Positions 7,003 to 56,677 of a stretch of 64,000 bases of DNA are shown here, in pieces. How positions within the stretch are numbered: position 1 is the first letter of the stretch; each line of letters starts with the position of its first letter. A model generated the notes under the pieces. That model made no database searches, was not told the origin of the DNA, and saw only the letters and a program-made list of their open reading frames with translations. The position numbers and the translations under genes were made by a program. This DNA comes from Escherichia phage A5-4: the sequence record OP744025, one strand, 5' to 3'.

Positions 7003-10000
7003 ATGGCTGAATATAATGATAAGGTCGTGGAAGCATTCGTTACTGCCCCAGATCCTGTCGTAACTACCACTGGTGGTGGAGTTATTTTTGACGGTATTGA
7101 AACAGAAGATACTGTATCAACCCTGCTGATTGGTGATGGTACTGCATCCTCCCCTTTACAAGCGCAAGTCAAACTTTCTCGCCGTGCTGGTAACGCCCTG
7201 ACTATCGTTCAATCCGATACCGAGCAAGGCTTGTTTGCTACTGCCGGAGATGCTAAAGTTTCAGCTTCTCAAGTGAACATTGCAAAATACGTAACTGCGG
7301 AAGAAGCTGCTGCACAAGGCGATGCAGGTCTGGAAGGTATTTTGGTAGAGCCTGTCCATGCGACCACCACCGCAGTTGGCGATGCCTTGGAAATTACCGC
7401 AGATCCTTTGACGGCTAAAAAATCCCGCATTTCCCTGAAAGTTTCCCCTTCCGCAACCAACGCGTTATCTGTAGAGTCAGATGGATTGGCAGTTAAAGTC
7501 TCTCCTGCCGTTGACAACAGCCTGCAAGTCCGTGAAGGTGCACTTTACGTAGCTCCTGTTGGTGCTGATATTTCTCAAGACCCAGGTAACAAACTGGAAC
7601 AGCGTTCAGATGGACTGTTCGTAGAAACCATCAAAGGCGACAAAGGTGATCAGGGCGAGCAAGGACCAGAAGGTCCTCAAGGCCCAGCAGGGGAAGCTGG
7701 ACCTGCTGGACCACAGGGTGAAAAAGGCGACAAAGGCGATCAAGGTGAAGTCGGCCCTGCTGGCGCAACTGGCCCTGCTGGCCTGACTGGTGCAACTGGT
7801 CCTCGTGGTATAGAAGGACCTCGTGGCCCTGCTGGTATTGGTATTAATATCCTAGACACCCTTGCATCTGAAGACCAATTACCTTCTGTTGTTGATCTTT
7901 CGAATGGGGATACCTATGTAATAGGACAGAGTTTCTTTACCGTTATCACTGAAGGTGGTATCAAACAATGGAGAAACGTAGGTAACTTCGCTGGACCTGA
8001 AGGTCTTTCTGCATTTGAAGTTGCTGAAACCGCAGGCTTTGTTGGAACAGTTGATGACTGGTTGGCTACCCTTCGTGGTGCTGATGGAATCGGTCTGCAA
8101 TTACTCGGTTCTTTCCAACGAATTGAAGACCTTCCGGCAGAAGAGAACAACCCAGGCGATGCCTACATCATTCAAGAAAAGATGTATGTTTGGACTGGTG
8201 ATACAGATGGCTGGCAACCTGTAGGACAGATCGGTCCTGAAGGTCGTTCTGCTTATCAGGTCTGGCTGGCTAACGGGAACGTAGGTTCTCAGCGTGAATT
8301 CCTTGAATCACTGAAAGGTGAGAAAGGTGATACTGGCGATCAGGGTCCTCAGGGTATCCCAGGTGCAGATGGTAAAAATGCTAACGCCATTAATATCTTA
8401 GGTTCCGTTGCAGATCAGGCGAGTTTGCCAGAAGGTGCAGATGCAGGTGATGCTTACCTGATCGGTACTAACGTATTCGTTTCTGATGGTGCTGGCAACT
8501 GGCAAGACTTGGGATCTTTCCAAGGTCCGCAAGGTCCTACTGGTGCTAAAGGCGACAAGGGGGACAAAGGGGACAAAGGGGACAAAGGCGATAAAGGTGA
8601 TGACAACTATGCCATCGCAGTTGCTAACGGTTTCCAAGGATCAGTAAATGAATACCTTGCATCTATCAAGGGTGAGAAAGGTGACGTTGGTGCAACTGGC
8701 CCTCGTGGATTAGCTGGTCCACAAGGTGAACAAGGTCCTGTTGGTGCGGGTCTGAATATCCTTGGCTCAGTAGCTTCCGAAGACCAATTGCCTCAGACTG
8801 GTATTAGTGAAGGTGATGCTTATCTGATTGAAGCTGATCTTTATATCTTTACTGGTGGTCAGTGGACTAACGTTGGTAACATCAAAGGTCCCCAAGGGGA
8901 TGTAGGACCACAAGGTCCACAAGGTCCTATTGGTCTGACTGGTGCACAAGGACCGCAGGGTGCAACAGGGGCACAAGGTCCTGCTGGTCCCCAAGGTGAG
9001 ACTGGTCCACAAGGTGGTATTGGTCCACAGGGCGAGACTGGCGAGAAAGGTGACAAGGGCGATAAGGGTGATACTGGAATTGGTATCGTTGCTCGTGGTA
9101 TTGTTGCAACTCAAGAAGCACTTCCTGCCGATGCCACCACTGGTGACTTCTACGTTGTAGAGTCTGAAGGTAATGGTTATGCTTGGGACGGCACTGCATG
9201 GGTACTGACTGGTCTTACTCGTGGACCTCAGGGTCTGAAGGGCGACAAAGGCGACACTGGTGAGAAAGGAGACAAAGGAGACAAAGGCGACGCAGGTGAT
9301 GCACTGAAGCTGAAAGGTTTGGTTGCAACCTCCACTGAACTTCCTTCTACTGCTGAATTAGGTGACTTCTACGTAGCTGAAGACACTGGGATCGGTTACG
9401 CTTGGGATGGCGTGGAATTCGTTTCTGCCGGAACCGTTAGAGGACCGCAAGGTGAAGTAGGGCCTCAGGGTGAAATTGGTCCTCAAGGACCGCAAGGCGA
9501 GAAGGGAGATGCTGGCGACCAAGGACCTCAAGGATTGGTCGGTGAAACAGGTGCAAAAGGTGATAAAGGGGATAAGGGTGACGTTGGCTCTGGTCTGATT
9601 CCGAGAGGAACTTTACCGTCTCAAGCAGACCTTCCTCAAACTGGTGAAGTTGGTGACTTCTACGTAGCTAACGATACTGGTATTGGATATGCTTTTGACG
9701 GAACTACATTCGTAGAAGCTGGCGTTGCCCGTGGTCCACAGGGTGAACAAGGACCTCAGGGTGAACAGGGACCTCAAGGTCTTAAAGGGGATACTGGTGA
9801 AACAGGTGCTCAGGGACCTCAAGGTGCTCAAGGTGAGAAAGGTGATACCGGAGAACGTGGAGAGGTAGGTCCGCAAGGTGATCAGGGTCCGCAAGGTGAG
9901 CAAGGTCCTCAGGGTGATATCGGACCAGGTGTAGAGATCATTGGACGATTTGATACCTCTGATGAATTACCTTCCACGGGTACTTTGGGTCAAGGTTACC

Positions 10001-11507: not shown

Positions 11508-13091
11508 ATGAGTACACTTGCTCGTGGTATTGCAGGAGAACAAAGAGGCGTATTTTATGGATATGCTCTTTACGATCTGGAACAAAAAAGAAAGATAGCC
11601 TTTAAAGATTTAACTAAGGGTGACTCAGGGGCAAAGGGCGATAAGGGTGATCCTGGTCCAGAAGGTCCACAAGGTGATAAAGGAGATACCGGAGAGCAAG
11701 GCCCTGTAGGACCTCAAGGTCCTGCTGGTGCAACAGGGCCACAAGGTGTGTCTGGTGAAAGAGGACCTCAAGGTCCCGAAGGTCCTGTAGGACCTCAAGG
11801 TCCAATTGGTCCCGAAGGCCCAGTAGGGCCAATTGGCCCCCAAGGTCCAGAAGGTCCTAAAGGAGAGCAAGGTGACCAAGGCCCTTCTGGATCTCAAGGC
11901 CCTCAAGGATTAAAAGGGGATACAGGGCCACAAGGACCTCAAGGTCCCGTTGGACCCAGAGGAGAGACAGGTGCAACAGGACCTGTTGGACCTAAAGGGG
12001 ACACAGGCCCAACAGGTCCAAAAGGAGAAACGGGTGAACAGGGACCCATTGGTCCGCAAGGACCTAAGGGTGATACAGGGCCTGTGGGTCCTGCAAGCTT
12101 AACCTTCAGAGGTTTCTATGAACCTCTTGAAGAATACAACGAAAAGGATACAGTAGCTTATAATGGTTCTACTTATTTTGCGTTAAGAACCAGTACAGGA
12201 GCAACACCGGATATTTCTCCCGATGACTGGGCATTACTTGCAGCTGAAGGTGCAGTTGGACCACAAGGACCTATGGGACCAGAGGGTCCGCAAGGTATCG
12301 CTGGTGCTCAAGGTCAGGAAGGCCCTGTAGGACCGCAAGGTGAACAGGGTCCGGTTGGACCTGTTGGCCCACAAGGCCCACAAGGTCCTGCGGGTCAGGA
12401 AGGAATAGAAGGACCTCAGGGACCTCAAGGAGAAGAAGGCCCTGTGGGACCTCAGGGACCACAAGGGATTGTAGGACCAACAGGTCCACAAGGCCCTCAA
12501 GGCCCCAAAGGGGACACTGGTGCAGTTGGACCACAAGGTCCTCAAGGCCAACAAGGTCTTGATGGTCCACAAGGCCCTGCTGGTCCGCAAGGCGAAAGAG
12601 GTGTTACTGGACTAACCGGACCCCAAGGTCCCAAGGGTGATATCGGCCCTGTGGGTCCGGCTGGCCCTCAAGGTAAGGATGGTAATTCTTACACTATCTA
12701 CAACTGGGGCAACATATCAACGGGCTATGGTGAGATGGTAATACCTGGTGTTACTAACACAGTATTCAGAGTGAGACGAGTAGGAACCACATTAGAATAC
12801 AGTGTACTTAGTAAAGGTGGTGCGAATAGATACCTTGACTTCCATACCATAATTCCAGCCCCCTCTACAGGGGGCGCTGTAATTATCCAATCAGGAAATA
12901 CAACATTGACATCCTCCAGCTCTTTAAATGTTGTTACATCTGCACCTCCTGGTCTTGGTTTTCGACCAATATTCATCTCTTTAAAAGAGTGGGGAGATAG
13001 GGCAATAGTAACCATAGAGGTTTTCCACACAGGTAGAAGTGGAGATGCCAGTTACCCAATACATGTTCGTATGCTAACGACGAAGTATTGA
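11508..13091 (+). CDS. Collagen-like repeat protein with globular C-terminal domain
   Basis: 527 aa; long GPQGP/GxY runs; C-terminal ~150 aa non-collagen. Confidence 0.85.
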
Positions 13092-40646: not shown

Positions 40647-40704
40647 TTTGTTCTCCTCATTTGTTTGATAGGACTACTATAACATAGTCCTATCCGCTTG
40701 TATA

Positions 40705-42095: not shown

Positions 42096-42272
42096 TTATT
42101 TGTTGATGAATTGGCTAAGGATTTCGATAAGATCTTTAGCTTGTTTCTTGTCGAGAATCACGCTGTCTCCTGCATGGCAGATTTCAATAACATCCTCTTC
42201 TGCATGATATTCAACTTCCTTTGCATGAAAATCTTCAGTTTCTTTAATCACTTTTACAATGCGCTGTGTCAT
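42096..42272 (-). CDS. Small protein (58 aa; absent from track)
   Basis: ATG preceded by GGGAGAG RBS; fills gap on coding strand. Confidence 0.5.
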   Translation of the reverse strand: MTQRIVKVIKETEDFHAKEVEYHAEEDVIEICHAGDSVILDKKQAKDLIEILSQFINK

Positions 42273-42382
42273 CTTGTTTCTCTCCCTTTCTCTCTTTCAT
42301 CGTTTAGTTTCGATAAGGTGATAGTACATCAACTAACCAATTATTATTTAGCAATTAGTGCTAAACGCCATAATCAATCTTA

Positions 42383-42625
42383 TTAATTTTCATTTAATAC
42401 CCTTAGTGCTCTCTTTTCACAAATATCCCTGAGCCTGATTACCTCTCCTATTAGATAGGAAATAGCCTTAGCTTGTACTGGTTCATCGTAATCCCCAACC
42501 GTCCCAAACACTTCATCGAGAGATAGGAAGAACTCTGAAGAGTAAATACTGTTTTGATCTTCTATAGCACGGTCTGCATTAAATTTAATATCTTCCAGGG
42601 CGCTATTACTGATATTCATAGTCAA
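42383..42625 (-). CDS. Hypothetical small acidic protein
   Basis: 80-aa ORF. Confidence 0.55.
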   Translation of the reverse strand: MTMNISNSALEDIKFNADRAIEDQNSIYSSEFFLSLDEVFGTVGDYDEPVQAKAISYLIGEVIRLRDICEKRALRVLNEN

Positions 42626-43047
42626 ACTCCATAATCTATCTTAACAAGCTTCCCTTTGTAGTATCCAAAGTTTTTAGGAAATGCGTCGTACTCGAAGAAA
42701 TCTCGGTCAAGGGTTCTATCTTTATCGTTATCAACCTCATCATAAAGTTTTTGTAGATCAGCTGTAAATAATCCCTTATTCTCTACTGGTTTAGCCTTGT
42801 GCATCACAACCATAAGTCCGAATCTGTTTGAGTAAGCTATTGGGCATAGATGCGGGTTATTATACCCTTTCCACTGACCCTCCGTCATATTGCTGAGCAT
42901 TCCCTGAACAAACGCCTTCCATGAATTAAATCTTGGGAACTTAATCGCATACTTGTTTGTGATTATGACAATTCTCGTCCCACCACTCCTGTTTATCTGC
43001 ATCTTAATATCTCCAGACCTCGTTACTTGTTTCGATGAGGGCATCAT
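42622..43047 (-). CDS. Hypothetical protein with kinase-like motif spacing
   Basis: YAIKF, DRDFFEYDAFPKNFG, IDYG; only 141 aa. Confidence 0.5.
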   Translation of the reverse strand: MMPSSKQVTRSGDIKMQINRSGGTRIVIITNKYAIKFPRFNSWKAFVQGMLSNMTEGQWKGYNNPHLCPIAYSNRFGLMVVMHKAKPVENKGLFTADLQKLYDEVDNDKDRTLDRDFFEYDAFPKNFGYYKGKLVKIDYGV

Positions 43048-43085
43048 ACCAGAATGAATCTGTGTGTCAACACTTTTTATTCAGG

Positions 43086-43112
43086 CAATAAAAAACCACC
43101 CCGAAGGGTGGC
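43086..43112 (-). terminator. Rho-independent terminator after polymerase 3' exon
   Basis: On minus strand GCCACCC-TTCG-GGGTGG then TTTTTTATT. Confidence 0.7.
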
Positions 43113-43129
43113 TTAAGATTAAAATTTCA

Positions 43130-43429
43130 TTAGTGACAATCTCCCCAGCTGTATCCACAAAGGTATTCTCCAGTTATCATCACTGGTGATTTCATCATCT
43201 TAGCTGCTTGTTCGACACAACGAACAACCATCTCTCCTACAGGGCAGTATGTAATAGTGAAGATACCATTTTCATCTGGATCACACTTAAACTTCCCTTC
43301 CTTCACGCAATGACCATCCAAGATCATTTTCTTAGCCAAGCAAGCTTCTACAAATTTCTTCGCGTCAGCTTCATTGTCAAAGGTCCAAGTCTTCTTAAAC
43401 TTGTGTGGCACTTCAAGCTGGTATTCATC
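43130..43429 (-). CDS. DNA polymerase (family A) 3' exon
   Basis: Begins DEYQLEVPHK (motif C, cf. Klenow HDELVFEVHKDD); ends ...GYSWGDCH (cf. T7 ...GPNWAICH). Confidence 0.65.
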   Translation of the reverse strand, partial: DEYQLEVPHKFKKTWTFDNEADAKKFVEACLAKKMILDGHCVKEGKFKCDPDENGIFTITYCPVGEMVVRCVEQAAKMMKSPVMITGEYLCGYSWGDCH

Positions 43430-44201
43430 CAAAAGTTTAACGAGGTCGTTACTCTCGCCCACATCATTACATGTTGCCATACGTTTTCACGTATGGATCG
43501 GACTATATCACCATCCTTTTCAGGATGCTCCCCATTTCGACGGCACTTGCTCGCCTACGCCTCTCGGCTAGTCTCTGAACGTTAGGACCATGTGTAGTCA
43601 CAAGAGATGTGTGTCCAGTTTTTACGGATTTTTATGGACCTTACCACGTTGTAAGGATAACCCATATCCCGAATCTGTGCACTTCCATAACCTTGCCCCA
43701 GGAAGTTGCAAATCTCTCTAACCTCTTCTTCGGTAACTATACTTCTGGCGTTATCAACCCCTGTTGCTGAACGACATTTATCAGCAAAGGTTTTCTTGAT
43801 ATTTCCACCACGAGTTGTCCATTGGAGGTTTGAATAGTGGTTATTCCTTTTGTCAGGCCACTTATGATCAACCTCCGGCAAACCTTCAGGGTTTGGTACA
43901 AAACACTCTGCCACCAAAACGTGAACAGCCTTTGTAGTCGTCCTTTTGTTGAGATACAGACTTACAATAAGATACCCACGTCCATTATCAACTGCCGCCA
44001 TTGGTTTCCCTCGACGACCTATAATGGTCCCGTCTTCATAAACCTTGTAACCGAAATAATCTTTATATTCCACATGATCCTCTTCGCTGCTGATTAACAT
44101 AGTCTCATACTAACTCACACTTGAATTAATATCAACCTTAGTCTTCCAGCAATTAAAGGAGTTTTCGATGTGAGTTACCTCACAAAGCCACAATGTTACT
44201 T
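43430..44201 (-). mobile_element. Group I intron in DNA polymerase gene
   Basis: Group I elements R (GTTCAGAGACTAG) and S (GATATAGTCC) flanking a P8-like hairpin; free-standing HNH ORF; exon ends in U, intron ends in G; splice restores YYHDEYQLEV. Confidence 0.7.
43582..44100 (-). CDS. Intron-encoded HNH endonuclease
   Basis: GYLIVSL motif plus HNH core LVAECFVPNP...VDHKWPDKRNN...NLQWTT. Confidence 0.75.
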   Translation of the reverse strand: MLISSEEDHVEYKDYFGYKVYEDGTIIGRRGKPMAAVDNGRGYLIVSLYLNKRTTTKAVHVLVAECFVPNPEGLPEVDHKWPDKRNNHYSNLQWTTRGGNIKKTFADKCRSATGVDNARSIVTEEEVREICNFLGQGYGSAQIRDMGYPYNVVRSIKIRKNWTHISCDYTWS

Positions 44202-46085
44202 ATGGTAATAGATAATACGTCTAACGCCTTCATCATACCAACCTTTCTTGACCAACTGCCAGTGCAGGAGGATACCCACCAAGTCAAACAGTGCAGCACC
44301 ACCATTCTGCTGATAAGCATTAAGCAATGAGTGTTTGGAACGAGTGTAGATCTTACGCCCATCCAGACCATAGATGAATCGCTTACCGTTAGCTTCCCAA
44401 AACTTCTCTAATGCTTCTTTACGACCTTTCAAGCCGATGTTGCTATCCCAGAATGCGTCGATTACTGCTTGGGCTTTCTCAAGACTGATACCAAGCATTG
44501 ATGCAATCTTCGCTGCCTGTGCCCCGTACATGATTCCGTATGTCACCCCTTTACCTTCGCCACGAGAAACCTTCTTCCCTGCTGCTTTGGTATATGCTTC
44601 TGCGTTTCGGGAGTGAGCATCTCCAGATTCCATGATACGAAGATAAGCACCGCCATCGAAATCATAAGCGCCCCATGCTGCGATCATGCCTTCCAAGTTT
44701 GAACCGTCGATACCTACCTGATATTTACCCTCAGAGGCTCTGAATAGTTCACGCATCTCTTTACCGAGAAGAACTTTCTCATCCGGCTTAGGTACGTTTG
44801 CTACGATCGTATGCTTACGACGACCTGTGTTAGTTATTCCACTATAACGGGCCGGAAGTTTACCGTCAACTCGTAGACGTGGATGGTTAAGCCATCCGGT
44901 ATCAACCTTCTCTTCTTTCAGCGGGTCAAGAACAGATCGTCGGTTACGTAAAGACAGCCATTTAACAATCTGTTTAGCCATTTCACCATCTACTCGCTCA
45001 AGGTTAGGGCAAAGACCTTGCTGATCCTTAAGTTGCGGGGATGTTGGCAATGCACGAGCTTTCTTACGGAAAAACTTGAACATCTTTTCTTTATCTGACC
45101 ACTGCTTAGGTGTGATCGCCAAGCTTTTCAGAATCAGATCACGATACTCCGTCTGATCCAAATCTTCAATGTATTGACGAACAATCAGATCAACCTCACT
45201 ATCAGGACGCTGTTTCTTGAACTGATCTTTAGTTGCATCCTTTGTACGCCAAATTGTTGGGACCCACCCTGCATCACGGATCAGGAACTTCTTAACGTCG
45301 TCCTGGTTACCAATACGCATCGGAATCATAATGTCCGGCATCTTTTGTTCTTTGATATCCATCAAAGCACGAGCCATATCTTCCGGCGGCAAAGGAACAA
45401 GTCCTTGCTGCTTAACGTTTTGTGCACGGATAAAATCACCCATTTTGGATTCATCCTCTACACCGTGCTCAACACAATACTTGATCGCGGCGGCAGTAAG
45501 AGATCCGTCAGCCTTAAACGGCTTACTTGGTGCACCTTTAAACTCCAAGGCTTCCCAATTGATATTATAACCTAACTTCTCTAACCATTTCCAACCTGTA
45601 CCGGAAAGAGATCCATCACCCTTGAAAGGTTTAGATGGGAATGTCGGTTGTGCTGATTTCGACATCTCTTTCTTCGGCAACTTAGGTTCAACCTCTAACT
45701 CAATGTCTGTCATCATCTTATCGATACGATCACGAAGCTTGAGTGCTTTTTCTTCATCAAATGAAACACCCTGAATTTCTTGCTCAATCATCAGGTAGTC
45801 AGTCAACATACCTCGACGCAGGGCATTCTTCCAGTTGATCATTTTATACTTCTTCTGATCTTTGTCTGTTTCATCCTTATACATGAAGCGTTTATCATCC
45901 GGCATAGATTCACAAGAGATCTCTTTCATCAGAGCATCCCATACCATTTCGTTGATAATTACGTCTTCAATAATACGATCGCAATACTTCCAAAGTGGAA
46001 GGCCACGCCAATCTTCGATCGCCACTTTCTGGTTAGCTACTCGCATACCCCAAGCTTCAAGCCCGTGTGGCCCTACAGGCTTCAT
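44202..46085 (-). CDS. DNA polymerase (family A) polymerase-domain exon
   Basis: HGLEAWG (cf. T7 HALEAWG), Exo III-like DRIIEDVII, motif A/B region, ...GVRRIIYYH at exon end; track ORF reads through to stop at 44196. Confidence 0.75.
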
Positions 46086-46531
46086 TTTACCGTGACGGGG
46101 TTCTTTACCATCTCAGGACAACCGCGAGGCAGAGGGCGATCTGGATACAGTGTACGGGACATTGAAAGTGTATCGAAGATGTTTACTTGTTTACCATTAA
46201 TCGTACCCATGCAACCAGGGTCTGCAAACATATCGTAAGTTGTTCCAAGCATCTTCTTAAACAACTGGAGGTCGTAGCCGAAGATGTTGTGGATAGCAAT
46301 TGCTTTAGGCTCTGTGACAAACCACTCGTTTAATTCCTCAATGGTCCGAATCTTAAAGTTTTTACCTTTAGATTGGATAAATTTAACAGCTTGATCGTAA
46401 CCTTCCCGCTGGGGATCAAGAAAGATGTTCCAGTTATCTTTTTTATACTCTTTAAACAAGACGCAGTGAATCAGATCAACCTCTGTCAATAGACCATTCG
46501 CTTCCGCATCTCCAATAAATAAGCCTTTCAT
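46082..46531 (-). CDS. DNA polymerase N-terminal 3'-5' exonuclease segment
   Basis: Exo I DAEANGL and Exo II HNIFGYD; ATG at 46531 after AAGGAG RBS preferred over track start 46555; 4-nt overlap with next ORF in a different frame. Confidence 0.65.
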   Translation of the reverse strand: MKGLFIGDAEANGLLTEVDLIHCVLFKEYKKDNWNIFLDPQREGYDQAVKFIQSKGKNFKIRTIEELNEWFVTEPKAIAIHNIFGYDLQLFKKMLGTTYDMFADPGCMGTINGKQVNIFDTLSMSRTLYPDRPLPRGCPEMVKNPVTVK

Positions 46532-46604
46532 TTTTTCTCCTTCTTCAAGCTCCAACTAGACTAAAACAAAGCCCAGCCGGAGGTATGACCCTTCGGCTAG
46601 GTTA

Positions 46605-53519: not shown

Positions 53520-54268
53520 CGTTATGTTCGACAGGGTTCGCTACTCCCTGCCCGTTCTCTTACGAACTGCTACATGTCCCCATGCAGACCAGACTATATC
53601 TTCAACCTGTTTCCAGGTGCTATGCACTTCGGACCGCTTGGCCCTACTCTACTCGATTCAAGAGTCTAGCTCTTGTCTTTCGATAGTCGTTGCTCCTTCC
53701 TCTCAACCGCTTTGTAATTTGTCTTACGGTATCTCTGTGTATCCCAAAATGCTCTGCAATTTCTTTTTGTTGAAGCGTGGTATTAATAACCATTTCGTAA
53801 ACCTGCTTCTCAAAATCATCAGCATATCTATTTGGATTTCTTCTACCGTTGGCCCAACCATGATCGACATTTTCTTTCGTGGTTGTCCATTCCAAATTAA
53901 CATCGTTGTTGTTTTGCCTGTCGCTATCTTTATGATTAACAACAGGAAGGTTATGAGGGTTATCAACGTAGTGTTCAGCCACCAATTGGTGAATAAATCT
54001 ACGTGTAACCTTACCATCTTTACTTAACGAAACTCTAAGATACCCTGAACTATTGGTATCCGGTTTGAGTTTTTTAAGCTTCCGGTAAACATCTCCCCTT
54101 CGGGTAATGATGTAATTTTCAAAACCTTTTATTCTTTTCATTTCCCCCCCTTGCAATAAACAAAGAGGTTGAGAGGCTTGGATCAGGATTACGTGTTCTA
54201 CGCTTCCCCTGAGTTCACATAGTATTTAGTCGAGGCATCTCTGCCAAGGCTGGCTAGACTTAATGTTT
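53520..54268 (-). mobile_element. Group I intron in primase-helicase gene
   Basis: Intervening block splits the P-loop; S element GATATAGTCT and P8-like hairpin CACCTG-GAAA-CAGGT downstream of HNH ORF; splice as GAG|VKMGKS fits U-before/G-last rule. Confidence 0.65.
53644..54156 (-). CDS. Intron-encoded HNH endonuclease
   Basis: GYLRVSL plus LVAEHYVDNP...VNHKDSDRQNN...NLEWTT; paralog of 43582..44100. Confidence 0.75.
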   Translation of the reverse strand: MQGGEMKRIKGFENYIITRRGDVYRKLKKLKPDTNSSGYLRVSLSKDGKVTRRFIHQLVAEHYVDNPHNLPVVNHKDSDRQNNNDVNLEWTTTKENVDHGWANGRRNPNRYADDFEKQVYEMVINTTLQQKEIAEHFGIHRDTVRQITKRLRGRSNDYRKTRARLLNRVE

Positions 54269-55204
54269 ACCAGCACCGATGAAGTAACCTTCACCTGGAC
54301 GACGACCCAAGGTAAGCTTGGTCATGGTGGGCCAAGGGAACTTCTTGCCGAGTTTAGGGATCTCATGTGCCTTTTCGCGGAACTGTGAATAAGTCGAGAA
54401 ACCATCCGGCACATATTCCTTTGGCTTCATTGCAGCCCAAAACAACTGATCAGAAAGTCCTTTGTTATACATGTCGCAAGGGTCCATATCTTCTGGAATG
54501 TCCACGACCTTCATTTGTGGAATTACAGAGTATACCGCTGCAACTGCATCTTTACCTTTCATGATCCCTTTGGCCTTCTCTGCTTCTGTCGCACGGTCAG
54601 CATCGAAAGCTACGATAATCTCTTCAAACTTACTCAGAAGCTTATAGTTATTCTTCTGTGATAAGTTTTGCACGGCATTGGATGTACCGTTAGAGATAGA
54701 TACAACTGTGAAGTTTGGTTTACGAGTGGAACCATCCTTCGGTTTGTACTTCTCTGTCAATACCTGCCACAAGATTGCAGCATCATATTCACCTTCAGTG
54801 ATAAAGATCATACGTTTGGAAGACTTATTTGCACCTTCCAGCCCAAACATATCACAAGCCACAGATTGGAAACCAATAGTTGTAAAGTGACCTTTCTGTT
54901 GCTTAGGGATCGTAAGATCACGCTTCTTAAAACCTACAACCTTACCTTCTAATGTATACGGGAAATAATGTGCTTCTGGTGTCATACCGTCTTTAGCTGA
55001 CAGTTTGGTACGAATACCAAATCGTTTAGCTGTCTTTTCGTCGATACCGCGCTCAGGGATACTTTTGCACGGGTAAGTCAATACGTCTTCAACTGTTTCT
55101 TCTACACGAGACACACCACCACCATAATTACGTGCTACTGAAGCTTTAGGATTTTTATGTCCAAACTTATAACCGCCAAACAAACTTTCGCCAATAGTGC
55201 TCAT
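54269..55204 (-). CDS. Primase-helicase (T7 gp4-like) 5' exon, TOPRIM primase part
   Basis: TOPRIM IFITEGEYDAAIL and VAFDAD; ends ...GEGYFIGAG at start of Walker A; no zinc-ribbon Cys motifs. Confidence 0.7.
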
Positions 55205-55865: not shown

Positions 55866-56239
55866 GCGTATTCAACCTCACTGATCATTTCAAAACCATC
55901 ATTTTGGATTAACGTTTTAACAAAGCCAATATTACCATCTTCTATGTTTCTGTGCAACCACATATACCCTTCAGCACAGTAAACATTAACACCGTAGCCT
56001 AGTTTAGCTGCTCGTTCAAAATCACCACTTTCTTTCTTAACCAAACAACGAACCATCTTTTTCATCAGTCTTTCCCCCTTATGATCAGGAACAACGTACT
56101 TATTGATTGCCTTAACAAGATGTTCCCGTAATTGTTGTGTATGACCATACTTTGAAACAGTTTCCATAATCTCACCAATGCACTTATTGAACAGGTGGGG
56201 TGGAATTTTTAACTTTCCGAATTGATCCATATCAACCAC
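55862..56239 (-). CDS. Hypothetical protein
   Basis: 125-aa ORF. Confidence 0.55.
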   Translation of the reverse strand: MVDMDQFGKLKIPPHLFNKCIGEIMETVSKYGHTQQLREHLVKAINKYVVPDHKGERLMKKMVRCLVKKESGDFERAAKLGYGVNVYCAEGYMWLHRNIEDGNIGFVKTLIQNDGFEMISEVEYA

Positions 56240-56449
56240 CTAAGTTAGTGAAATCTCTATTGTAACTTTAGCTTTACCTGCCACCATTGCAGTTCCAGAT
56301 TGTAACGCAAGCTCGATAGTTTCAAAATTTACAGATGGACTTTGCAACAATATACCATCAACAGCACGGAAAACCTCAGGCTTTTGACTATCCCGATTGA
56401 TAAAATATAATTCTCGGCTCTCCATAAACTTCACAATGTCAAACATCAT
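56240..56449 (-). CDS. Hypothetical small protein
   Basis: 69-aa ORF. Confidence 0.5.
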   Translation of the reverse strand: MMFDIVKFMESRELYFINRDSQKPEVFRAVDGILLQSPSVNFETIELALQSGTAMVAGKAKVTIEISLT

Positions 56450-56452
56450 CGC

Positions 56453-56677
56453 TTACTCCTCAATAATTTCAAGTTTACCGTTAATAGTATACAGAGTTGT
56501 CGCCTTCTCTTCAACAACTTTTAACGCGTTAATGACAGAATCATAAAACTCTTCAGATTCCTTAACTTCTTGTTTGCACTTCTTGATATGGTCGGCACTA
56601 ATATCCCGAAGACTCAACAGTTGTGCACGATTAAGTACAGACAAGTCTACAGAAAAATCATCAACTTTAAAACTCAT
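56453..56677 (-). CDS. Hypothetical small acidic protein
   Basis: 74-aa ORF. Confidence 0.5.
   Translation of the reverse strand: MSFKVDDFSVDLSVLNRAQLLSLRDISADHIKKCKQEVKESEEFYDSVINALKVVEEKATTLYTINGKLEIIEE

Follow-up and report, generated by a model that had tools for sequence, protein, structure and literature searches.

The polymerase locus of A5-4

The window analysed here is a 64,000-nt stretch of the genome of Escherichia phage A5-4 (OP744025), in which three CDSs deposited as "DNA polymerase" lie on the minus strand. The three are one gene, cut by a private 1-nt deletion and by an HNH-carrying probable group I intron, and the features of the locus are as follows.

46082..46531, minus strand: ORF1, encoding the polymerase N-terminus, 149 aa when read from the ATG
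46085..46112, minus strand: 28-nt stretch ahead of the ORF2 AUG where the frame of ORF2, which is -1 with respect to ORF1, has no stop, reading DGKEPRHGKMKPVG... after a stop codon
46091..46092, minus strand: position of the single-base loss peculiar to A5-4 (alignment with A73 and A7_1; BLAST indel lists against both)
46082..46085, minus strand: ATGA stop/start overlap, the UGA of ORF1 overlapping the AUG of ORF2
44196..46085, minus strand: ORF2 from ATG to stop, N-terminus MKPVGPHGLEAWG
44202..46085, minus strand: remainder of polymerase exon 1, comprising GPHGLEAWG, Exo III, thumb, palm and fingers to ...RRIIYYH of motif C
43430..44201, minus strand: putative group I intron of 772 nt (Rfam RF00028), interrupting motif C between YYH and DE
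43582..44100, minus strand: HNH endonuclease ORF in the P6 loop of the intron (Pfam HNH_3)
43130..43429, minus strand: polymerase exon 2, DEYQLEVPH...GDCH and stop (alignment with A7_1)

The ATG of ORF1 is preceded by a strong Shine-Dalgarno sequence. The ORF was deposited from a TTG at 46555 (UZZ64241.1, 157 aa), and it ends on the minus strand in ...RGCPEMVKNPVTVK and a stop codon, with the protein C-terminus ...NPVTVK. ORF2, deposited as UZZ64240.1 (629 aa), extends 6 nt into the intron to a stop at 44196. Its exon part is collinear in alignment with the uninterrupted gene of phage A7_1, and its AUG is the ancestral internal Met150 codon. The polymerase domain was assigned to Pfam PF00476 (DNA_pol_A, E = 2.1e-11, 43.9 bits, cut-off 34.3).

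Exo I (DAEANGL; D8 and E10) and Exo II (HNIFGYD; N82 and D87) are encoded by ORF1, while the GxHxLxAWG motif (GPHGLEAWG), the Exo III aspartate D190 and the polymerase domain are encoded by ORF2. These five residues and GxHxLxAWG show no variation when aligned with the polymerases of CR3, rV5, ICP1, a Felix O1-like phage and T7. The initial annotation was right in placing the two halves of one exonuclease active site in two frames, Exo I and II in ORF1 and Exo III with GPHGLEAWG in ORF2, and in noting the 4-nt overlap of the ORFs, which is the ATGA at 46085-46082. Like the T7-type family A polymerases (T7 gp5 and the enzymes of rV5, CR3 and ICP1), the A5-4 protein has an N-terminal DEDD 3'-5' exonuclease, and its Exo I-III acidic residues and GxHxLxAWG align with T7 gp5; by sequence alone the match to gp5 is weak (E = 0.23), and the YxxxD tyrosine lies off the T7 position in the A5-4 clade. 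Unlike those enzymes, the A5-4 record has its frame cut between Exo II and Exo III, so that exonuclease and polymerase are not encoded there as one continuous polypeptide.

The missing adenine and its distribution

The alignment with A73 and A7_1 locates the lesion at a lone A. A5-4 reads GTCAC-GGTAAAATG where both relatives read GTCACAGGTAAAATG, a single A being absent; the relatives carry this A between 46092 and 46091 (CAC[A]GG), and the codon concerned is GGT, Gly148. The initial annotation had mapped the switch to the CCCC run, but the site, 46092/46091, is 5 nt downstream of that run and outside any homopolymer. The extra C that it proposed at 46100-46097 does restore the frame arithmetically (...NPRHGKMKPVG), but the ancestral reading across the break is ...NPVTGKMKPVG..., not ...NPRHGK.... 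Nor does a homopolymer sequencing error account for the split, the change being the loss of the lone A in CACAGG and not a change of run length, in a genome reported to come from an Illumina MiSeq, which is not a homopolymer-error-prone platform. The coding change amounts to one residue, G148V, at a position that varies among relatives (G, N or K). The break region is a loop of variable length, an assignment drawn from alignment gaps only (14 residues are missing in the Felix O1-like polymerase and 4 in T7), and the segment around it is highly conserved within the Vequintavirinae.

The gene is unbroken in five close relatives (A73, A7_1, W70, LTH01 and UPEC06), which read ...NPVTGKMKPVG... and are each 1 nt longer than A5-4 across 45990-46200. 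Five IMG/VR Certrevirus contigs carry the same reading without a break. A tblastn search over the junction gave 783 phage records, of which 782 were matched at 80% or more at a single location; the gene was in one piece in all of the 60 rows sampled. As exact proteins, ORF1 and ORF2 were each found in one contig, A5-4 itself; a separate look-up of encoding contigs with ORF2 gave no match. An exact-pattern scan of viral_contigs and metagenome_contigs gave no match to the deletion allele and likewise none to the wild-type allele; these collections therefore hold no Septuagintavirus sequence at the site, and the negative result for the deletion is uninformative. A protein homologue search with ORF1 returned, among 4 candidates, only ORF1 itself. 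Since it missed the 97%-identical polymerase of A73, this search is uninformative on other truncated forms, and tblastn against phage records was used instead. The deletion is unique to the A5-4 record.

When repaired and spliced, the CDS is 2631 nt long, has its only stop at the end and runs collinear, codon for codon, with the gene for the 876-aa enzyme of A7_1, from which it differs by 106 synonymous and 17 non-synonymous codon changes. Within the N-terminal fragment there are 4 synonymous differences from A7_1 and no non-synonymous ones, and private codon changes number one. The frame break is best read as the unprogrammed loss of a single A that only the A5-4 record lacks, in a polymerase gene that is otherwise intact and under selection.

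An old pseudogene was considered and ruled out by the ratio of synonymous to non-synonymous differences from A7_1. A noisy assembly with many broken genes was likewise rejected, as the only other isolated 1-nt indel private to the A5-4 record over 64 kb is intergenic, in a T run at 40664. A CCCC/CCCCC difference at 56074 is an allele of A73 and W70, not of A5-4.

Expression across the break and the origin of the deletion

An evolved expression or recoding signal is absent at the break. No Shine-Dalgarno sequence was found for the ORF2 AUG, pairing upstream of which reaches only -3.1 kcal/mol. The mean for ATGs inside the gene is -4.0 kcal/mol, and where real starts are approximated by the first ATG of each long ORF in the window, the median is -7.3 kcal/mol. 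In pairing with the anti-Shine-Dalgarno sequence, the ORF2 AUG does no better than 67% of the internal ATGs. The overlap itself is not a mark of design, an idea that was rejected on its chance rate: 12% of simulated single-base deletions in the polymerase gene yield an ATGA overlap, and 3.6% combine the overlap with a stop within 12 nt. The reading of the split as an evolved, conserved two-gene exonuclease domain or an evolved programmed frameshift has the tidy ATGA overlap in its favour and nothing else, and we give it next to no credence. It is already contradicted by the absence of the layout from every relative examined, by an ORF2 without Shine-Dalgarno sequence, by a plausible chance origin of the overlap and by an AUG, A run and C run that are ordinary ancestral codons.

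Gene pairs of E. coli that overlap by ATGA are coupled through termination-reinitiation (Huber et al. 2019, PMC6728339), and removal of the Shine-Dalgarno sequence lowered reinitiation by 60-90% in three of five such pairs and abolished it in one (PMC6728339). The A5-4 locus is like these pairs in that an AUGA overlap on one mRNA places the terminating ribosome on the next start, and unlike them in that ORF1 has no internal Shine-Dalgarno sequence, the layout is not conserved and the 'downstream gene' is the rest of one protein. If the deletion is real, the polymerase might be made in two pieces, ribosomes that finish ORF1 at the UGA starting again at the AUG that overlaps it, along with a trace of slippage to -1 on A_AAA_UGA; we consider this possible but doubtful. 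The products would perhaps be a 149-aa N-fragment (~17 kDa) with Exo I and II and a spliced 727-aa C-fragment (~83 kDa) with Exo III and the polymerase, the latter beginning (f)MKPVGPHGLEAWGMR at Met150, and the two could conceivably reassemble non-covalently across a surface loop. It is possible but doubtful that the A is truly absent from viable virions, whose proofreading site would be built from a 17-kDa and an 83-kDa polypeptide by accidental AUGA reinitiation without a Shine-Dalgarno sequence.

Several observations are consistent with such a two-piece enzyme. The overlap employs a native Met codon and is of the kind that is coupled in E. coli, the two fragments together retain all residues but G148V at a variable position, and the break sits in a loop of variable length. 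Illumina data and a non-homopolymer context lower the likelihood of a consensus error, and A5-4 is viable according to its published description. There is also a precedent in the polymerases of Aeromonas phages 25 and 44RR (PMC2988022, citing Petrov et al. 2010), which are described as two reassembling polypeptides; for phage 25, 43A and 43B are reported to co-purify with polymerase activity (PMC2988022). As described there, however, the 43A/43B enzymes are of family B, the DNA that splits them is an insertion (an untranslated spacer or a homing endonuclease gene), and their split has become fixed in the lineages that carry it, whereas the A5-4 enzyme belongs to family A and its break is one missing base, private to one record. 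The strong effect of Shine-Dalgarno removal on reinitiation in the E. coli pairs (PMC6728339) weighs against the two-piece enzyme, given an ORF2 that lacks this sequence, as does the high conservation in the Vequintavirinae of the segment flanking the break. The arrangement was found in no other lineage, so selection does not favour a two-piece layout.

The tetramers C_CCC (46100-46097) and A_AAA (46088-46085), the latter directly before the UGA, both lie in 46112-46085, the stretch over which the -1 frame is open. Slippage is known to be stimulated when a stop codon stands immediately 3' of the slippery run ('shifty stop'). Transcriptional slippage needs a run of more than four A residues. 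No slippery heptamer X_XXY_YYZ in the zero frame was found in 46112-46085, which holds tetramers only. The search for a stimulatory RNA structure was negative, the fold of the region being no better than that of shuffled sequence (z = -0.86), and an 8-bp hairpin starts at the last base of the stop codon, the wrong spacing for a stimulator, which is required 5-9 nt downstream. A Shine-Dalgarno-like element acting as a frameshift stimulator was not found upstream. All relatives examined have a single frame instead of the two-frame layout; they need no frameshift, and in them the AUG, A run and C run serve as normal codons of ancestral origin. The site is like programmed -1 sites (dnaX A_AAA_AAG, IS3/IS911, the G/GT of tail assembly chaperones) in having re-pairing runs in a short overlap with a stop adjoining one of them, and unlike them in having tetramers only, with heptamer, stimulatory Shine-Dalgarno sequence, correctly spaced RNA structure and conservation all absent. 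In the published measurements, unstimulated Z_ZZN tetramers shift at 0.147%, the background being 0.112%, and A_AA.A is the weakest active tetramer even with a pseudoknot (PMC4066793). Recoding on the C run, another of the initial proposals, finds no support here: the gene is continuous in all relatives, a slippery heptamer and significant downstream structure are absent, and isolated Z_ZZN tetramers act at about background in E. coli (PMC4066793).

It is very unlikely that a real deletion is corrected to full-length enzyme by -1 ribosomal slippage. Such slippage would have to take place with tRNA-Lys on A_AAA and UGA in the A site, yielding ...NPVTVKMKPVG..., or with tRNA-Pro on C_CCC, yielding ...NPRHGKMKPVG..., neither of which we expect; the corresponding trans-frame peptides would be NPVTVKMKPVGPHGLEAWGMR or NPRHGK..., and their presence is equally improbable. 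The open -1 frame with both tetramers inside, the stop right after a slippery run and an A_AAA product one residue off wild type are compatible with it. The near-background rate of unstimulated Z_ZZN and the weakness of A_AA.A (PMC4066793), the absent heptamer, the hairpin that begins at the stop codon itself and the unexceptional fold (z = -0.86) all count against it, and both tetramers are ancestral coding sequence in relatives free of frameshifting. The shortness of the A run also counts against the transcriptional variant.

Loss of proofreading only, with a C-fragment that polymerizes alone in an exonuclease-deficient mutator phage, is an unlikely outcome of a real deletion; such an allele might have hitch-hiked in enrichment on the laboratory host. 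A T7 polymerase mutant that lacks 28 residues of its N-terminal exonuclease domain has undetectable exonuclease and a polymerase activity above wild type (PMC3997047), and the A5-4 break aligns just upstream of T7 GSHALEAWG. However, the C-fragment would be half a DEDD fold without its packing partner, and private non-synonymous changes are not in excess.

Most likely the split reflects a defect of the deposited record or a mutation that arose very recently, and not a programmed frameshift; the three options first listed for it (sequence error, recoding, inactivating mutation) still bracket the answer. The likeliest reading, at slightly better than even odds, is that viable phage does carry the A and that only the deposited consensus, or an unrepresentative variant, lacks it; we infer that the missing base is an artefact instead of a true allele. 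An artefact is favoured because the deletion is private and the gene shows neither decay nor adaptation, and because a signal for expression of a second cistron is absent and the ATGA overlap is unremarkable (12%). The data source points the same way. A5-4 was sequenced on an Illumina MiSeq and assembled with metaSPAdes at default settings; according to the passages of the A5-4 paper on assembly, the raw reads were not deposited, and these passages mention neither polishing nor a Sanger check, which likewise favours an artefact. The absence of the break from many diverged lineages suggests that such a break is selected against, and a true allele would thus be expected to be rare and short-lived. 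The paper describes normal plaques (clear, 1-3 mm) and kill curves like those of A7-1, and this phenotype, despite the expected cost of such a break, also favours an artefact. Other considerations argue against one: indel errors in Illumina consensus sequences are rare at non-repetitive sites and the lost base lies outside a homopolymer, the assembly otherwise looks clean, the break is unusually clean (G148V alone, a stop over a native Met codon, 3.6% of random deletions), and it falls in a variable-length loop where a real break could be tolerated. The weighting of error against real mutation uses rough general rates rather than data for the A5-4 library.

If the base is indeed an artefact, the phage would make one continuous exon-1 product, ...NPVTGKMKPVG..., which would be joined to exon 2 via group I intron splicing, and the fragment that the A5-4 authors listed as "an additional DNA polymerase" would be an annotation consequence of a single missing base. 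The main value of the finding is correction. For the species Septuagintavirus sv54, A5-4 (OP744025 / NC_130866) serves as the exemplar genome. Were the deletion real, the locus would show, as a natural example of modest interest, that a replicative polymerase can withstand a chain break in its proofreading domain, and it would be a convenient system for studying reinitiation without a Shine-Dalgarno sequence. A two-piece enzyme, if true, would offer a natural snapshot of the birth of a split gene from a single-base deletion, and a mutator phenotype might accompany it.

The putative intron in motif C

The same gene has a second, unrelated break near motif C, overlooked by the initial annotation, in the form of a probable group I intron with an HNH gene. 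A7_1 lacks exactly 43430..44201 in alignment. The junctions are ...CAT/AAGTAA and ...TTTTG/GATGAA, the exon ending in U and the intron in G, and the full-length model of Rfam RF00028 matches at 42.9 bits (E = 2e-9), under the gathering score of 50. The A5-4 element resembles the SPO1/SP82-type group I introns, which carry HNH homing endonucleases in phage DNA polymerase genes: a U precedes its 5' splice site, its last base is G, its HNH ORF occupies a peripheral loop, and it is inserted in the conserved motif C. It is unrelated to the frame break in the exonuclease domain. The third "polymerase" ORF, 43130..43480, is, as judged from sequence, exon 2 behind this HNH-bearing putative group I intron. 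It was deposited separately as 'DNA polymerase' (UZZ64238.1, 43130..43480, 116 aa), and its first 17 codons are intronic.

A single base missing from the exonuclease domain

On the minus strand of Escherichia phage A5-4 (Septuagintavirus sv54, 145,365 bp), ORF1, the N-terminal polymerase fragment (46082..46531, counted from an ATG with a strong Shine-Dalgarno sequence), ends ...RGCPEMVKNPVTVK followed by a stop codon, while the start of ORF2, the remainder of polymerase exon 1 (44196..46085), reads MKPVGPHGLEAWG, the two sharing an ATGA stop/start overlap. Catalytic residues were placed by alignment with the enzymes of CR3, rV5, ICP1, a Felix O1-like phage and T7 (gp5), the direct T7 match being weak. 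Exo I (D8, E10) and Exo II (N82, D87) fall within ORF1, and the GxHxLxAWG motif and the Exo III aspartate D190 within ORF2; a single active site is therefore split over two frames, as the initial annotation had observed. That observation was correct, but the lesion was mislocated at a CCCC run. Alignment gives GTCAC-GGTAAAATG in the window against GTCACAGGTAAAATG in both A73 and A7_1, and the missing base is one A, between 46092 and 46091, 5 nt downstream of the CCCC run (46100-46097) and outside any homopolymer, which excludes the proposed change in homopolymer length. Whole-window BLAST against A73 and A7_1 recovered the same single gap. The ancestral protein across the junction is ...NPVTGKMKPVGPHGLEAWG...; the sequence ...NPRHGK... 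expected from an extra C is arithmetically possible, but is encoded by none of the relatives.

The nearest records over the polymerase region are Escherichia phages A73, W70 and LTH01 (~97% nucleotide identity), followed by A7_1 and UPEC06 (~95%), and all five are exactly 1 nt longer across 45990-46200. One annotated CDS spans the junction region in A73, W70 and LTH01, the polymerase CDS is single and uninterrupted in A7_1, UPEC06 and CR3, and five IMG/VR Certrevirus contigs are uninterrupted across the junction (ORFs of 665-890 aa). A tblastn search of phage records with a 138-aa segment across the junction returned a single-place match of 80% or more in 782 of 783 records, and each of 60 rows drawn from along the ranking was a single-piece match.

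Expression and recoding signals at the break

There is no evolved signal at the frame break. The 20 nt preceding the ORF2 AUG pair with the 16S 3' end at -3.1 kcal/mol, no better than 67% of the internal ATGs of the polymerase gene (mean -4.0); the median is -7.3 at the first ATGs of the window's long ORFs, which stand in for real starts, and the value for the start of the polymerase itself is -8.8. The -1 frame is open for just 28 nt (46112-46085), a stretch that holds the tetramers C_CCC and A_AAA, then UGA, and no slippery heptamer. An 8-bp hairpin begins at the final base of the stop codon, and the fold of the break region is no better than those of shuffled sequences (z = -0.86). In the relatives, which have no need for recoding, the ORF2 AUG and both the A and the C run are just ordinary codons. 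The break is not a programmed recoding site, and the recoding on the C run suggested initially has no support. In E. coli, Z_ZZN tetramers alone gave 0.147% shift against a background of 0.112%, and A_AA.A was the weakest of the active tetramers when a pseudoknot was present (PMC4066793); rescue of a real deletion mainly by -1 slippage is very improbable.

The ATGA overlap itself is not improbable. Among 2582 simulated single-base deletions of the repaired gene, 317 (12%) produced such an overlap on an in-frame ATG, in 93 (3.6%) the stop also fell within 12 nt, and the identical ATGA stop could be obtained from 23 adjacent deletion positions. That the ORF1/ORF2 arrangement evolved as such has a negligible probability.

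Artefact or real allele

We lean slightly towards the missing A being an artefact or an unrepresentative variant. By rough rates, an error in the consensus would be several times likelier at such a site than the sampling of a transient deleterious allele of an essential gene. The break is seen in no other lineage compared, despite the 23 positions giving the identical stop; selection thus acts against breaks of this kind, and a real allele is expected to be rare and short-lived. The A5-4 sequence came from Nextera XT libraries, Illumina MiSeq, metaSPAdes at defaults and RAST annotation, and the available text of the study describes no polishing or confirmation step, gives GenBank accessions only as its deposition and reports no growth defect for A5-4, with clear 1-3 mm plaques on MG1655 for all four phages (PMC11370258). 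The default assembly settings count on the side of an artefact. Two later papers citing A5-4 do not mention the break.

A real deletion rescued by reinitiation is possible though distinctly less probable, the absence of the break elsewhere and of a reported growth defect both counting against a real allele. In its favour, the platform was Illumina, the lost base lies outside repeats and the assembly is otherwise clean: in 64 kb, the only isolated private 1-nt indels against both A73 and A7_1 are the polymerase deletion and one at 40664, the remaining indels being a multiple of three in length, pairs that compensate each other within divergent stretches, or common to a relative. The break is also unusually benign, with G148V as its sole change (position 148 is G, N or K among relatives), a stop that overlaps a native Met codon, and a site in a variable-length loop where the Felix O1-like enzyme lacks 14 residues and T7 lacks 4. 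E. coli ribosomes are known to reinitiate after termination at ATGA overlaps, but in most tested pairs this fell by 60-90% once the Shine-Dalgarno sequence was lost (PMC6728339). Aeromonas phage 25 43A/43B offers a likeness, a split replicative polymerase that works (PMC2988022). A real deletion inactivating the exonuclease only is unlikely, although a T7 polymerase mutant without 28 exonuclease-domain residues kept, and even raised, its polymerase activity (PMC3997047).

The site at 40664 is a T run in an intergenic spacer, TTTT to TTT in A5-4 (CATTTG-TTTGATA). At 56074 (plus strand), a homopolymer frameshift polymorphism affects a small hypothetical gene: CCCCC with one ORF is the form of the window and of A7_1, UPEC06 and LTH01, and the CCCC allele, with two small annotated ORFs (A73_77, A73_78), is that of A73 and W70, not A5-4.

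A predicted group I intron and the annotation of the gene

Purifying selection has acted on the polymerase gene until now, with 84 synonymous and 14 non-synonymous codon differences from A73, 106 and 17 from A7_1 (4 and 0 in the N-terminal fragment), and 6 of 43 private codon changes non-synonymous; an old pseudogene is ruled out by this synonymous excess. A second, distinct break is best read as a group I intron carrying an HNH endonuclease gene.

43430..44201, minus strand: predicted group I intron (RF00028 match; absent from A7_1), within motif C between YYH and DE
43582..44100, minus strand: HNH endonuclease ORF (HNH_3) in the intron P6 loop

ORF2 terminates at ...RRIIYYHK and a stop, the 116-aa C-terminal ORF includes ...LLDEYQLEVPH..., and the uninterrupted A7_1 enzyme reads ...RRIIYYHDEYQLEVPH... 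at the same place. The insert is exactly absent from A7_1 (BLAST), UPEC06 and CR3 and present in A73, W70 and LTH01. The Rfam model matches 44211..43478 at full length (42.9 bits, E = 2e-9), short of the gathering score of 50; U is the last base of the upstream exon (CAU) and G that of the insert (...UUUUG, before GAUGAA). With one base added and the insert removed, a 2631-nt open CDS results, codon-for-codon collinear with A7_1, so that the three CDSs deposited as "DNA polymerase" belong to a single gene. These are UZZ64241.1 (157-aa ORF1 form), UZZ64240.1 (ORF2, 629 aa) and UZZ64238.1 (116 aa), exact matches found on one contig each among the 15 billion proteins of the collection searched; the intron region was deposited as separate CDSs, not as an intron.

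As judged from the sequence, a single gene encodes the A5-4 polymerase; a private deletion of one base and an HNH-bearing, probable group I intron interrupt it, and the practical outcome is an annotation correction. The 'additional DNA polymerase' of A5-4 in the DNA replication section of PMC11370258 arises because the 1-nt deletion makes an extra CDS, and the extra 'helicases' given there for A73 and W70 may likewise be split genes.

In the primase/helicase gene, a 749-nt insertion (about 53521..54269, minus strand), found in A7_1 and not in A73, splits the Walker A motif between GAGVK and MGKSE; its ORF 53644..54156 has HNH_3 and helix-turn-helix matches, the group I model matches weakly (24.6 bits, E = 0.003), and without it the gene is open over 681 codons. 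At polymerase codons 868-874 (43130..43160, minus strand), four of the six private amino-acid changes are clustered in the final nine residues, which read CGYSWGDCH in A5-4 and TGMNWGACH in both A73 and A7_1, adjoining a region divergent from A73 (42098..43160); this may be a recombination boundary. About 220 nt at 56236..56456, between conserved flanks, align to neither A73 nor A7_1 by BLAST. In the tail-fibre genes (9061..9074 and 11614..11840), 9-nt units of the GATAAGGGT repeat (Gly-Asp-Lys, collagen-like) have been gained or lost, and there is a further difference from A73 in a short Gly-X-Y-like stretch that is heavily rearranged.
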